DNA of 62,251 nucleotides, filler included, from Candidatus Eiseniibacteriota bacterium (lineage in GTDB: Bacteria > Orphanbacterota > Orphanbacteria > Orphanbacterales > Orphanbacteraceae), in NCBI GenBank assembly GCA_043809585.1. It is 5 parts of 5 records of this genome, joined end to end, with 100 filler letters (N's around TTAATTAATTAA, not from the genome) between each part and the next. Parts side by side here need not be neighbours in the genome. Positions count along the whole stretch, not along the records: positions 16,483 to 33,712 come from JBDROZ010000060.1; 4 more parts are not named here. One strand, 5' to 3'. Made by a program: the position numbers and the translations under genes. The notes under the pieces are model-generated. The model did no database searches and was not told where the DNA came from. It worked only from the letters and a program-made list of their open reading frames with translations. The stretch's first letter is position 1, and each line of letters begins with the position of its first letter. This document shows positions 16,383 through 51,722 of the stretch, in pieces.

Positions 16383-16482
16383 NNNNNNNNNNNNNNNNNN
16401 NNNNNNNNNNNNNNNNNNNNNNNNNNTTAATTAATTAANNNNNNNNNNNNNNNNNNNNNNNNNNNNNNNNNNNNNNNNNNNN
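16383..16482. other. Artificial contig linker
   Basis: N44-TTAATTAATTAA-N44, with stops in all six frames. Confidence 0.97.
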
Positions 16483-31561: not shown

Positions 31562-32749
31562 GTGGTGCATCGAGCCGTCCTTATCGTTGCTGCGTTTCTC
31601 CTCATCGCCTGGATGCCCGCCCTCGCCACGACCTGGTATGTCCTCCCCGATTCCACCGGTGATGCGCCGACCATTCAGGCGGCGATTGATTCGAGTTCGG
31701 ATGGGGACACGGTGCTGGTGGCGGCGGGGACGTATTACGTTAATCTGGTAATCCTGTTGAAGGCCAACATCAGTCTCATCGGGGAATCGGGGCCGGAGTG
31801 GACGATCCTAGATGGGACTTATCCGACGGGTGGAGCGCAGAGCAGAAGGGTCGTCATTCGCGCTCAGGGATCCGACAATCTCTTAATCGAAGGCTTCACG
31901 ATCCGTGAAGGAAGGCCGAACGGGTATCATGCGTTCTATGGGGGTGGCATACATGTATACGAGGGGCGATGCACGATTCGGGGGAACATCCTTCGTGACA
32001 ATGAAAACACGTTTGGGGCCGCCATATGTTTTGGATGGAGATCGTCGGAAACGGGGGGATCTGTAATCGAGGAAAACTGGGTTGCCGACAATCTCTCAGA
32101 TACTTGTGTCGCTGGTGCTTACATGGAGGGTATTGAAGGGCCGATCTGGGTCAGAAACAACGTCTTCACCGGAAATGTGGGCAGGTATGCTGCCGTGAGA
32201 TCATTAGACACTGAGCTGTTCGTCCAAGCGAACTTGTGCACGGCAAATGTAGCGGAGAAATACTGCGTGAGGAACGAGTACGGGGTCTTTTGGGCTGAGG
32301 GCAACCTCTTGATTCATAATGATGCGTCGGGCATTGCGAGCCGTGAGGGGACTATTCGGGGAAACACATGTGTGGAGAATACGGGCTATGGCCTTGTTGT
32401 GGGTTACGGGAATCTCTACAACAACATCTCTGCAGGGAATGGCCTTGATGGCATTAGCGCCTATAACGCGGGCAATGTAACCTGCAATGATTCCTGGGGT
32501 AATGGAGGACAGGAATATTCCTTTCTCGGGACGATCTCAGATACCACCGGGAATAATTCTGCCGATCCTCTTTTCTGCAATCCCCTAGCGGGCGACTACT
32601 CCATCGCCTCCGAATCTCCTTGCGCTCCGGGGAATTCGGGCGGCTGCGGCCTGATCGGGGCACTCCCGGTCGGGTGCACGGCAACTTCGGTGCCGGCCGG
32701 TTCCTTCGAGCCCTCCTCTTGGGGAAGGGTGAAGAAGCTGTTCAGGTGA
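31562..32749 (+). CDS. Secreted right-handed beta-helix protein with C-terminal 'SWGRVKKLFR' tail
   Basis: Signal peptide, TIQAAID...GDTVLVAAGTY, IEGFTI..G, Asn-rich repeats, ADPLFC, SPC...CGLIGA. Visibly lower GC than neighbours. Confidence 0.85.
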   Translation: MVHRAVLIVAAFLLIAWMPALATTWYVLPDSTGDAPTIQAAIDSSSDGDTVLVAAGTYYVNLVILLKANISLIGESGPEWTILDGTYPTGGAQSRRVVIRAQGSDNLLIEGFTIREGRPNGYHAFYGGGIHVYEGRCTIRGNILRDNENTFGAAICFGWRSSETGGSVIEENWVADNLSDTCVAGAYMEGIEGPIWVRNNVFTGNVGRYAAVRSLDTELFVQANLCTANVAEKYCVRNEYGVFWAEGNLLIHNDASGIASREGTIRGNTCVENTGYGLVVGYGNLYNNISAGNGLDGISAYNAGNVTCNDSWGNGGQEYSFLGTISDTTGNNSADPLFCNPLAGDYSIASESPCAPGNSGGCGLIGALPVGCTATSVPAGSFEPSSWGRVKKLFR

Positions 32750-33712
32750 GTGCCCAGCTAAGGGTGCGTCTTTCTAGTCGGCTGGAAGGTGCCGACCGGG
32801 GCAACTGTCTGTCAGCCCCGTAGCGAGGGGTCGGGGTCGGAGCGGTGACGCGCCGGGCCTAAGCGATCCGACGAAGTCTCTTCAAGGAGGCGACGCGAAC
32901 CGGCAGGCCGTAACGCGAGTGAACCTACATGTAGCCTCGTTAGCTTCCATTGAGGAGGGCGACCCGCTATCTGAACGGGGAAGCCAGCACCTCGGGGTCT
33001 AGGACAGACGAACTCCCGAGGCTCCTCCGGGGTCTCAGGGGCGGCATGCCGGGACAGAGGACGCATCAACTGGGGAGGCCCTTTTCGGCCCTTGTGCGAG
33101 CAAGGAGGAGACCCACGGTATAAGGCGGAGCCGAAATCCGTGGGAGCCGGGGAGGGAGTCGGATGGGGCCATAGTACCGTTGATTCCGGAGACAACAGAA
33201 CTCCGGAGGAGGGAAGGGCCCCTGCTGTGGGTGTTTCGGAAGAAGGTCAGGATGAGCGCATTGCGAGAGCTGGAAAGCGCGGACAAGGTTCGGGACCTTC
33301 GGAAGAAGCTAGGGGCGAAGGCGGCGGCGAATTCCACGTTCCGCTTCTACGCTCTCTACGACAAGATTCATCGGTGGGATGTACTGTCCGAAGCGTGGCG
33401 TCGCGTGCGTGCGAACGGCGGGGCTCCCGGTGTGGACGGCGTGACGATCGACGAGATCCGGTCGAGGGGAGAGCGGGAGTTCCTCGCGGAACTTCAAGAG
33501 GAACTGCGCGCGAAGCGGTACGAGCCGCAGCCGGTACGTCGGGAGTACATCCCGAAGCCGGATGGGCGACTCCGGCCCTTGGGAATTCCCTGTGTTCGCG
33601 ACCGGGTGGTCCAGCAAGCCGCGTTGATGGTGATCGAGCCGATCTTCGAGGCGGACTTCACGGATGCGAGTTGGGGATTTCGACCGGGGCGGGGCGCACA
33701 GAAGGCGGTGGC
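32748..33712 (+). mobile_element. Group II intron (IIB-like, EBS1+EBS2), 5' portion, truncated by the gap
   Basis: 5' end GAGTGCCCAGCTAAGGGTGCG. DI basal stem GTGCGTC/GACGCAT, then AACTGGGGAGG. DIII-like GGAGTCGGATGGGGCCATAGTACC...GGAGGGAAGGGCCCCTG. EBS1/EBS2 complementary to the flanking exon. RT ORF follows. Confidence 0.92.
33252..33712 (+). CDS. ltrA: Group II intron reverse transcriptase/maturase, N-terminal part
   Basis: [55 protein letters not shown]...SWGFRPGR; cut before YADD. Confidence 0.93.
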
Positions 33713-33812
33713 NNNNNNNNNNNNNNNNNNNNNNNNNNNNNNNNNNNNNNNNNNNNTTAATTAATTAANNNNNNNNNNNNNNNNNNNNNNNNNNNNNNNN
33801 NNNNNNNNNNNN
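33713..33812. other. Artificial contig linker
   Basis: N44-TTAATTAATTAA-N44. Confidence 0.97.
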
Positions 33813-34000: not shown

Positions 34001-35452
34001 ATGAGCGACAAGAAGGGGACGCGGATCGAGCGGGATTCCCTCGGCGAGGTGACGGTTCCGGGCGATGCGCTGTACGGCGCCCAGACCGTGCGGGCGGCGC
34101 GGAACTTCCCCGTCTCCGGCCTCCGCCCGTGGCGCGCCTTCATCCGGTCCATGGCGTCGATCAAGCGGGCGGCGGCGGACGTGAACCGCGATCTCGGCCT
34201 CCTGGACCCGGAAAGGGCCGGCGCCATCGCGAAGGCGGCGGAAGAGGTGGAGGCCGGGATGTGGGACGACCAGTTCGTGGTCGACCCGTTCCAGGCGGGC
34301 GCCGGGACGAGCCATCACATGAACGTGAACGAAGTGATCGCCAACCGGGCGACGGTTCTCCTGGGCGGGAAGCCGGGCGAGTACCGGGTCCACCCGAACG
34401 ATCACGTCAACATGGCCCAGTCGACGAACGACACGATCCCGACGGCGATCCGACTCGGCTGTCTCTGGCGGTTGGACGAACTGCTCGGCGCCCTGCGGAG
34501 GCTCGCCTCCGCCCTTCGCGAGAAGGCGGACGAGTTCGACGGCGTCGTGAAGTCGGGGCGCACCCACCTTCAGGACGCGGTGCCGGTCCGGCTCGGCCAG
34601 GAATTCGGCGCCTACGCCACGGCCGTGGAGCGGGACGCCGGGCGGATCGAGGCGGCGGCCGCCGGCCTCCGGCGCATCGGTATCGGCGGCACCGCCGCGG
34701 GGACCGGCCTGAACGCCCATCCCGAGTACCACGCCCGCATGGTGAAGCGCCTCGGCGAGATCACGGGGCTCGGGCTCCAGGAGTCCGACGACCTCTTCGA
34801 GTCGATGCAGTCCCTTGCCGACGCGGCCCACTTCAGCGCCTCCCTCCGCACCCTCGCCCTCACGCTGATCCGGATCGCGAACGACTTCCGCCTCCTCTCG
34901 AGCGGGCCCTCCACGGGCCTTGACGAGATCCGGCTTCCGGCGGTGCAGCCGGGTTCTTCCATCATGCCGGGCAAGGTGAACCCGGTCCTCGCGGAGATGC
35001 TCGACCAGGCCATGTTCCACGTCATCGGCTGCGATACGACGGTCGCCCTCGCCGCCCAGGCGGGGCAGCTCGAGCTGAACGTGATGATGCCGGTCCTCGC
35101 CCACAACCTTTTCGAGGCGATGCAGGTCGTGATCGGCTCGGTGAACGCCTTCACCGAGAAGTGCGTGAAGGGGGTCCGGGCGAACCGGGAGAAGGCGGAG
35201 GGGTGGCTTTCGAAGAACGCCGTCGTCGTCACCGCTCTCAATCCCCTCATCGGATACAAGCAGGGGGCGGAGCTCGTCAAGGAAGCGGTGGCGAAGAACC
35301 TCTCCATCCGTGACCTCGCCGTGAGCCGCGCGAAGGCCGGGGCATTGAAGCGCCTGGGCGAAGACCGCCCGGTCTCGGCGGAGGAAGTCGAGAACGCTCT
35401 GTCCGATCTCAGAAAACTGACGGACGGGGGAATCGTGGGAGAGTGGCCTTGA
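34001..35452 (+). CDS. aspA: Aspartate ammonia-lyase / class II fumarase family
   Basis: RIERDSLGE, YGAQT.RA..NF, QAGAGTS, HPNDHVN..QSTND, GRTHLQDA, GSSIMPGKVNP. aspA versus fumC not resolved. Confidence 0.85.
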   Translation: MSDKKGTRIERDSLGEVTVPGDALYGAQTVRAARNFPVSGLRPWRAFIRSMASIKRAAADVNRDLGLLDPERAGAIAKAAEEVEAGMWDDQFVVDPFQAGAGTSHHMNVNEVIANRATVLLGGKPGEYRVHPNDHVNMAQSTNDTIPTAIRLGCLWRLDELLGALRRLASALREKADEFDGVVKSGRTHLQDAVPVRLGQEFGAYATAVERDAGRIEAAAAGLRRIGIGGTAAGTGLNAHPEYHARMVKRLGEITGLGLQESDDLFESMQSLADAAHFSASLRTLALTLIRIANDFRLLSSGPSTGLDEIRLPAVQPGSSIMPGKVNPVLAEMLDQAMFHVIGCDTTVALAAQAGQLELNVMMPVLAHNLFEAMQVVIGSVNAFTEKCVKGVRANREKAEGWLSKNAVVVTALNPLIGYKQGAELVKEAVAKNLSIRDLAVSRAKAGALKRLGEDRPVSAEEVENALSDLRKLTDGGIVGEWP

Positions 35453-41529: not shown

Positions 41530-41629
41530 NNNNNNNNNNNNNNNNNNNNNNNNNNNNNNNNNNNNNNNNNNNNTTAATTAATTAANNNNNNNNNNNNNNN
41601 NNNNNNNNNNNNNNNNNNNNNNNNNNNNN
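41530..41629. other. Artificial contig linker
   Basis: N44-TTAATTAATTAA-N44. Confidence 0.97.
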
Positions 41630-51622: not shown

Positions 51623-51722
51623 NNNNNNNNNNNNNNNNNNNNNNNNNNNNNNNNNNNNNNNNNNNNTTAATTAATTAANNNNNNNNNNNNNNNNNNNNNN
51701 NNNNNNNNNNNNNNNNNNNNNN
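51623..51722. other. Artificial contig linker
   Basis: N44-TTAATTAATTAA-N44. Confidence 0.97.

Follow-up and report, generated by a model that had tools for sequence, protein, structure and literature searches.

The window analysed here, a stretch of 62,251 bases from the genome of Candidatus Eiseniibacteriota bacterium (GCA_043809585.1), is not one molecule but a chain of five contigs joined via N runs around TTAATTAATTAA. At the end of the second contig (16483-33712) lies the 5' part of a group II intron, which splits the stop codon of a gene for a secreted-type, right-handed beta-helix protein after its first base. The intron starts with GAGUG, and its first two bases form the TGA stop codon of the host gene together with the last exon base, T. 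The features of this locus are listed below, where IBS and EBS denote intron-binding and exon-binding sites.

31562..32749, plus strand: host gene, an open reading frame (ORF) for a right-handed beta-helix protein of 395 amino acids (aa) that ends SWGRVKKLFR and has its stop codon in common with the intron
32720..32746, plus strand: codons of the conserved C-terminal tail WGRVKKLFR, defined by the ends of homologues
32734..32739, plus strand: IBS2, GAAGCT, forming six Watson-Crick pairs with 32942-32947
32741..32747, plus strand: IBS1, TTCAGGT, the last seven exon bases, pairing with 32969-32975, with covariation in seven copies
32747..32749, plus strand: chimeric stop codon TGA, read from the sequence as exon T plus intron G1 and A2, with a like arrangement in 44 of 46 tallied rows
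32748..33712, plus strand: first 965 bases of a group II intron, covering domains I-III and the beginnings of domain IV and the reverse transcriptase gene, cut by the contig end; from Rfam, profile and homology matches
32750..32767, plus strand: first hairpin of domain I (GUGCCC / GGGUGC, loop AGCUAA), with 100% of cells paired in seven copies
32786..33042, plus strand: match to the full model (1-225) of Rfam RF02005 (group-II-D1D4-6), E 9.3e-18, scoring 70.7 bits where the gathering score is 49
32942..32947, plus strand: EBS2, AGCUUC, which falls in a domain I internal loop, from pairing and the Rfam consensus structure
32963..32979, plus strand: EBS1 hairpin, with EBS1 AUCUGAA at 32969-32975, from pairing, Rfam structure and covariation
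33252..33712, plus strand: N-terminal part of a reverse transcriptase/maturase, an ORF without a stop codon up to the end of the contig; match to TIGR04416 (group_II_RT_mat), E 6.9e-44, profile positions 2-111 of 353

The host gene and the intron in the window

The frame of the host gene ends ..TGG GGA AGG GTG AAG AAG CTG TTC AGG TGA, with the stop codon at 32747-32749. A family profile search gave weak matches of the host protein to beta-helix families, and 862 homologues were found, several of them named Candidatus Eisenbacteria. Among the 120 homologues listed out of these 862, a motif of the type W-G-x-x-K-x-x-[FY]-R forms the exact end of 59 proteins and lies at most 12 residues from the end in 31 more, and nine of the ten closest homologues among those listed stop exactly at this motif. 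Hence, the arginine encoded directly before the chimeric stop codon is the natural last residue of the host protein. The tail of this beta-helix family, seen in the window and in the homologues P0002-P0120, follows the pattern ..C-G-L-I-G-A-x-P-V-x-C...[ST]-W-G-x-[IV]-K-x-x-[YF]-R-COOH, for which neither Pfam nor NCBIfam has a model; in the host protein itself, no family of either collection covered any of the last 100 residues. Nine members of the beta-helix family carry a tail resembling the type IX secretion domain in place of the WG..YR tail, and the sequences thus suggest that the WG..YR tail may be an alternative sorting signal.

The match to RF02005 spans the full model above the gathering score and identifies the structure of a domain I-IV ribozyme, and the TIGR04416 match of the fragment shows that domain IV encodes a reverse transcriptase/maturase (RT). 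No match to domain V/VI was detected anywhere in the window with Rfam, and the contig ends at 33712. The EBS1 hairpin consists of CCCG (32963-32966), the loop CTATCTGAA (32967-32975) and CGGG (32976-32979), and EBS1, at intron base 222, forms seven pairs with IBS1, including one G-U pair. In the consensus structure of RF02005, the loop of this hairpin is a terminal loop and AGCTTC falls in an unpaired stretch of an internal loop, so both elements occupy the positions expected for exon-binding sites. In relatives such as L074, EBS2 occupies this same loop position. In the first hairpin of domain I, two pairs vary among the seven copies, each on one side only. The original prediction had named the hairpin and both EBS-IBS pairings from the sequence alone, and all its sequences and positions proved correct, as did the placement of both exon-binding sites in the folded domain I. 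Compared with the GUGYG rule for the 5' boundary of group II introns, the intron in the window keeps G1, G3, Y4 and G5, and only U2 is replaced.

Position of the 5' splice junction

The departure from GUGYG depends on the exact position of the junction, which had been predicted at 32747/32748. Eighty loci whose RTs are related to the fragment (52-65% identity across it) were retrieved from bacterial genomes, and the 5' regions of 47 of them were aligned with the window (48 sequences; nhmmer, MAFFT). In this alignment, GAGTG of the window falls column for column on GTGCG of most relatives, which sets G1 at 32748. L020, which starts with GAGCG, shares the target repeat ..ATCGGCGTnATCTG with L034 and L074, which start with GTGCG, and its junction lies at the same place, indicating that the A is indeed base 2 of the intron. 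The repeated target was found in planctomycete-like genomes (L034, L074 in two copies, L020) and may be a repeat element that serves as homing site.

A scan of metagenome contigs was made with a pattern that began at intron base 6 and was therefore neutral with respect to bases 1-5 and the exon. It yielded six loci, all of which begin with GAG[TC]G after an exon T. The six copies are 76-92% identical to the window and to one another from intron base 1 on. The two bases preceding GAG are AT in L081, L082, L084 and L086 and TT in L083, while GT occurs only in the window and in L085, and this variation excludes a GTGAG start. A 5' splice site two bases upstream, with an intron starting GUGAG at 32746 and a TGA that is wholly intronic, is attractive insofar as GTGAG at 32746-32750 looks like the consensus and a pairing of CTGAAC with GTTCAG would be possible for it. 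We nevertheless regard it as extremely improbable, since the two bases in question vary among copies, the homology between copies begins only at GAG, the alignment with GTGCG relatives sets G1 at 32748, the unvarying exon T has as its partner an A of the EBS1 loop that is likewise constant, and the ligated exons of nine relatives with known 3' ends (see below) give proper stop codons only if the T is exonic.

The junction at 32747/32748 is further supported by covariation among seven copies of the sub-lineage to which the window belongs. In the EBS1-IBS1 helix, 93.9% of cells are paired and five of the seven pairs show two-sided changes. For the whole structure, 85.1% of cells are paired, compared to 30-54% when the partners are slid by 1-3 columns. 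On four of five measures, none of 500 shuffles matched the observed values, and on the fifth, further pair types, 9 of 500 did. Together with the alignment and the EBS2-IBS2 pairing in the window, these values confirm the predicted junction and the GAGTG start of the intron.

Among the rows listed for contigs from public sequencing runs, which are short and have shares of 0.32 or less, none shows a difference at 32748-32750; 112 further rows lie outside this listing, and the site is covered by only two diverged contigs. Both contigs, X1 record 2 (32719-32824) and X2 record 10 (32737-32940), cross the junction. A third contig (X2 record 9) ends exactly at 32747, and a further copy reads ..TGAAGT and then GAGCGCCCAG (loose ends at 32773). 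All of these observations are treated as hints. These contigs bear on the suspicion that the junction is an assembly artefact, in which a repeated intron was misjoined to a gene end within a metagenome bin. The location of the intron at a contig end, in a bin that is a chain of contigs, and the tendency of assemblies to break at repeats would fit such a misjoining. However, two independent public-run contigs, both of them diverged copies, cross the junction, the intron's own EBS1 and EBS2 match precisely this exon, which would not be expected of a chimera, and the same architecture is repeated in 40-odd loci. A misjoining is thus very hard to reconcile with the data and can be given hardly any weight.

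Related introns with GA starts in stop codons

The copies from the metagenome pattern scan and from searches of bacterial genomes were tallied by one script in 46 rows, 45 of them with a 5' exon. GAG is the start of 41 of the 45 copies with an exon, and in 44 of the 46 rows the exon T and the first two intron bases make up a stop codon. Two remnants have altered first bases but keep a stop: L122 begins AAGCG, giving TAA, and L128 begins AGGCG, giving TAG. The expectation that other copies would begin with GA was thus borne out, and GA is a trait of the whole intron clade and not a local adaptation at the site in the window. In five of the six metagenome loci, a long ORF terminates in frame on the exon T plus GA; they represent four distinct sites, as L081 and L086 have the same site.

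In 35 of the 45 copies (34 distinct sites), the stop codon is the in-frame stop of a gene with a tail that resembles the type IX secretion domain, recognised by the regular expression ..G-x-[YF]-x-[YF]......K-K-M-x-L-L-K. For 31 of the 35 flagged tails the assignment is by this regular expression alone. The last 100 residues of the other four (L082, L084, L085, L086) were tested with profiles, and all four passed the cut-offs of the models for the type IX secretion type A sorting domain, TIGR04183 (34.5-46.3 bits, cut-off 23, reaching profile position 69-70 of 72) and PF18962 (27.3-38.3 bits, cut-off 27). The original prediction had expected the copies at conserved C-terminal ends of secreted-protein genes; this holds for these 35 copies, but their tail is the type IX secretion C-terminal domain (..GVYFYRL....KKMxLLK) and not the predicted WGxxKxx(F/Y)R. 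The 44 aligned relatives with starts other than GA served as a control, and in none of them does a stop codon lie at the junction or next to it.

Several copies may reside in one genome, as a search of the genomes that carry the two GA-starting relatives from the first set of loci showed. In G001, four copies are identical over the first 135 bases; three of them occupy stop codons, each of a different sorting-tail gene, and the fourth lies 147 bases downstream of a sorting-tail gene. G002 contains a second copy, likewise in the stop codon of a sorting-tail gene. A search with the first 503 intron bases of L018 gave matches in 26 of 301 genomes from the order of G001. The intron DNA of the window itself gave only weak matches in domain IV when compared with three genomes and with 401 genomes from the class of G001, and the loci behind the weak matches of the latter search turned out to be GA-start introns at sorting tails (nhmmer). 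In the Ignavibacteria-type copies, the EBS1 loop could be located by regular expression in 18 of 26, and in 13 of these 18 the pairing spans at least six exon bases from the junction on. Loop and exon change together, as in ATTTCAT with ATGAAAT and ATCGTAT with GTGCGAT.

Two of the metagenome copies, L085 (intron bases 1-274) and L086 (1-1045), are 3'-truncated remnants that continue into unrelated DNA, with the host gene still ending on the intron-derived TGA. In L085, EBS1-IBS1 contains one mismatch. Both may be either decaying fossils or products of chimeric assembly. Another copy, L083 (1-406, minus strand), is nested in the RT gene of a related intron, after ..NVQLVR and before the YADD codons, where T|GA creates a premature stop.

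3' ends, reverse transcriptase and phylogeny of the relatives

The 3' side of the intron was accessible through relatives. The domain V/VI model RF00029 fixed the 3' end of nine introns (L082, L100, L105, L106, L109, L110, L111, L114 and L130), although in L106 and L110 the end was set by eye, one helical turn past the end of the model. The 3' ends of relatives read ..CUACUCUAC, and the nine fixed ends read ..CCUACUCUAC. Apart from the short form L130 described below, these introns are 1,924-2,098 bases long. In all nine introns with a 3' end, the 3' exon starts with two bases that would complete a stop codon: GA in three cases, AA in five and AG in one. The ligated exons consequently read T^GA, T^AA or T^AG, which means that a native stop codon of any kind has been split between bases 1 and 2 and replaced by TGA in the unspliced gene.

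L130 (G832:C43) is a 739-base form that consists of domains I and V/VI without an RT gene; it lies in the stop codon of a sorting-tail gene, and its 3' exon starts with GA. Domain VI usually comprises about 40 bases. In L082, about 120 bases (2300-2420) separate domain V from the 3' end, and the Rfam match needs a long insertion there; this stretch may represent an extended domain VI.

The RT of L082, 429 aa in length, stops 20-odd bases short of domain V, and more than 100 RT clusters are 65-86% identical to it. According to precomputed matches, it contains the Pfam domains PF00078 (RVT_1), PF08388 (GIIM) and PF00680, but no HNH domain. The lack of a DNA-binding/endonuclease region was thus observed for L082, the RT in the window being cut. 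In a tree of full-length RTs, which comprises only unnamed loci, without named class representatives, and in which L082 stands in for the sub-lineage of the window, L082 is sister to the GA clade of the Ignavibacteria type (12 tips, support 1.0). The host range of the window sub-lineage is indicated by one source name (Latescibacterota, P0225) and by the homologues of the host gene. When 401 genomes from the phylum of G003 were compared with the L082 RT, the one match was distant (47% identity) and the window sub-lineage was not represented, and viral contigs contained neither a relative of the L082 RT nor a match to the intron pattern.

Selection or drift at intron base 2

The GA start may be viewed as a result of neutral drift at a loose position, with the location in stop codons reflecting only the insertions that survive and the similarity of tail codons, and with TGA as a mere by-product of the exon T fixed by EBS1. 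Position 2 does vary in this intron class: most relatives have U, six have C and two have A (L020, L033). The GCGUG starts occur in L006, L039, L055, L016, L027 and L063, from Omnitrophota, a Nitrosotalea MAG (metagenome-assembled genome) and Paenibacillus. In addition, a canonical GU start would lengthen the host protein in the window only slightly. It had been predicted that GT would cause read-through, and this would be so, but only four codons (C-V-P-S) would be added before a TAA at 32759-32761. On the other hand, GAG is kept in 41 of 45 copies of the tail-dwelling clade, the two remnants with a changed base 1 or 2 still read as stop codons (TAA and TAG), none of the 44 relatives that do not start with GA lies in a stop codon, and a split between stop bases 1 and 2 can preserve G1 only if base 2 is A. 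On balance, drift appears an unlikely explanation, and we infer that A2 may have been selected because it keeps the stop codon.

The best explanation of the locus is in our view, and with high confidence, that the window contains a mobile group II intron with a GA start that is inserted in a stop codon and belongs to a clade of dwellers in the stop codons of sorting-tail genes. Several observations weigh against this explanation or against parts of it. The copy in the window is cut by the contig end, and its domains V-VI, 3' exon and intron-less allele are unseen; its splicing and mobility are presumed. The tail of the host protein differs from that of the other host genes, and no second copy at a WG..FR tail was present among the copies collected, the short public-run contigs giving hints only. 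Ten of the 45 copies were not flagged as sorting-tail stops: besides the window, L018, L112, L119 and L124 follow short frames and are not at gene ends, L104, L129 and L132 carry the tail but have a broken upstream frame, the register of L121 is unclear, and L083 lies within the RT gene of another group II intron. EBS2-IBS2, in the register of the window, is paired in only 50% of cells across the seven copies, with 6-7 bp in the window, 5 bp in L082 and L084, and weak or absent pairing in the other four. In the RT tree, the node that joins L082 to the Ignavibacteria-type clade has an SH-like support of only 0.47, and the two groups may have one origin or two. As regards an adaptive value of A2, L020 and L033 share the A at position 2 but lie away from gene ends and stop codons, and C at this position occurs in L006, L039 and the Paenibacillus copies. 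Position 2 thus tolerates different bases across this intron class, and A2 may be older than the habit of residing in stop codons.

A model for residence within the stop codon

The intron RNA finds its DNA target by base pairing, with EBS1, and EBS2 where it is present, recognising the final tail codons together with the stop-codon T. In the window, EBS1 and EBS2 together pair within the last 14 bases of the frame, i.e. the K-K-L-F-R codons and the T of the stop codon. The covariation between EBS1 and IBS1 shows this recognition by pairing of RNA with DNA. The constant A at the 5' end of EBS1 fixes the exon T. As G1 is kept for catalysis and the exon ends with T, only A at base 2 can complete a stop codon. 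With exon T plus GA reading TGA, translation of the host gene stops after the natural last residue in the spliced and the unspliced state alike, and splicing would restore the original stop codon.

The clade is characterised by an endonuclease-less RT and a GAGYG start, always after an exon T and overwhelmingly in the stop codons of genes with sorting tails, which are mostly the type IX secretion C-terminal domain. Sorting tails are present in many genes per genome and are alike at the codon level (..AAG AAR ATG NTN CTN YTN AAA T). Many tails with similar codons mean many harmless landing sites, and one intron may spread among them with small changes of EBS1; the four copies in G001 fit such a spread. 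The copy in the window would have moved to a different conserved tail with similar codons. Its tail codons, AAG AAG CTG TTC AGG T, resemble the target of L082, CAG AAG CTT GTT CTT TTA AGA T, and to judge from the sequences, this likeness may explain the move. Because the RT of L082 has only RT and maturase domains, integration probably relies on host replication for priming, as described for RmInt1 (PMC3035460).

A wider formulation of this model seems somewhat more plausible to us than its negation. According to it, the clade remodelled the near-invariant 5' end of group II introns (U2 to A) in order to live between bases 1 and 2 of stop codons, using the sorting tails of secreted proteins as harmless homing sites present in multiple copies; most of these would be type IX cargo, while the window would represent a second, undescribed tail, WGxxKxx[FY]R. 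Residence in stop codons would then have been invented a second time, independently, with ribozyme sequence recruited as a coding signal of the host. As a bolder extension, a ribosome that terminates on the splice junction might help to time splicing or mobility.

Neighbouring sequence

The remaining features of the window concern its assembly and the next contig.

16383-16482, 33713-33812, 41530-41629 and 51623-51722, no strand: spacers (N runs around TTAATTAATTAA), assembly joins and not biology
34001-35452: ORF of 483 aa on the next contig, which by its sequence motifs looks like a class II fumarase/aspartase-type lyase; unrelated to the intron

Since the window consists of five joined contigs, genes on either side of a spacer are not linked.

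Significance

The start sequence GUGYG is conserved in group II introns, and the introns described here show that it can yield to a coding constraint of the host. They also offer natural A2 ribozymes for testing the role of U2 in catalysis. To the survival strategies of group II introns, namely residence after terminators, in mobile elements or in stop codons of the groEL type, the clade adds the tails of paralogous sorting signals as a niche. As there are many such tails per genome, several intron copies can be carried per genome without harm, as exemplified by the four copies in G001. For annotation, it follows that genes for type IX cargo in Ignavibacteria-like and related genomes will often have about 1.9 kb of intron after them, that the annotated TGA of such genes may stand for a native TAA or TAG, and that assemblies will tend to break at these gene ends, as happened in the window. 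For engineering, these introns are candidate retargetable elements that would leave the tagged gene undisturbed.

Comparison with known introns

Specialised lineages of group II introns are said to have been defined by Michel et al. in 2007 (Biochimie 89:542). That group II introns can reside in stop codons is already known; unusual here are the changed 5' end and the target family, neither of which was found in print. A search of full texts, with most subscription journals outside its scope, returned no link between group II introns and type IX secretion tails, no stop-codon insertion in Bacteroidetes and no report of GAGCG, GAGUG or GAGYG starts.

Departures from the GUGYG rule at the 5' end that are tied to the reading frame of the host have been described for C.te.I1 of Clostridium tetani and for fungal rRNA introns (PMC4424553). 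In those introns, GUGYG is kept and splicing occurs 1-33 nt upstream of it, whereas the present clade has its splice site at the homologous position and an altered motif (U2 to A). Group IIC (bacterial class C) introns insert after transcription terminators (PMC12584367, PMC1702495) and resemble the present clade as a lineage specialised for a repeated, harmless niche at gene ends. However, they recognise a DNA hairpin with a short EBS-IBS pairing and without EBS2, and they lie downstream of the gene, while the introns described here have an EBS1 of 7 bp, in some copies an EBS2, and lie inside the stop codon. With RmInt1 and class D (IIB3; PMC3035460), the present introns have in common an IIB-like ribozyme, the logic of EBS1/EBS2/EBS3 and a protein without the C-terminal DNA-binding/endonuclease region. 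This likeness to class D is judged from features, the trees containing no named members, and RmInt1 differs in having a canonical start and in homing into an insertion sequence.

The closest precedent for the location is the monophyletic IIB1 family at start and stop codons of proteobacterial housekeeping genes, represented by Avi.groEL and EcKTE56.groEL (Gomes et al. 2025 Mob DNA, PMC12584367, which cites Michel et al. 2007 Biochimie and Ferat et al. 2003 Mol Microbiol). As in that clade, which is defined by insertion within or beside an initiation or termination codon, the introns described here lie within the stop codon, which is rebuilt by their own first base or bases, so that the host protein is made without splicing, and in both cases the intron reaches the gene end by site-specific retrohoming. 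The groEL introns split UAA after its second base and, by their own G1, convert it into UAG, and a few of them begin with A and thereby keep UAA (PMC12584367). In that arrangement (UA|G) the canonical G1 suffices, whereas the split between bases 1 and 2 found here (U|GA) needs A2. Furthermore, introns of the groEL type have a subdomain Ia of 300-700 nt at domain I's base, as well as a CL1 RT with an endonuclease (PMC12584367). In the window, no more than 38 nt separate intron base 1 (32748) from the beginning of the RF02005 match (32786), which leaves no subdomain Ia, and the RT of L082, compared without named CL1 proteins, has 429 aa and RVT_1 and GIIM only. Finally, the groEL-type introns occupy one housekeeping gene each in proteobacteria, while the introns described here use a multi-copy family of sorting tails in other hosts. 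The present clade therefore works like the groEL introns but is not a member of their family.

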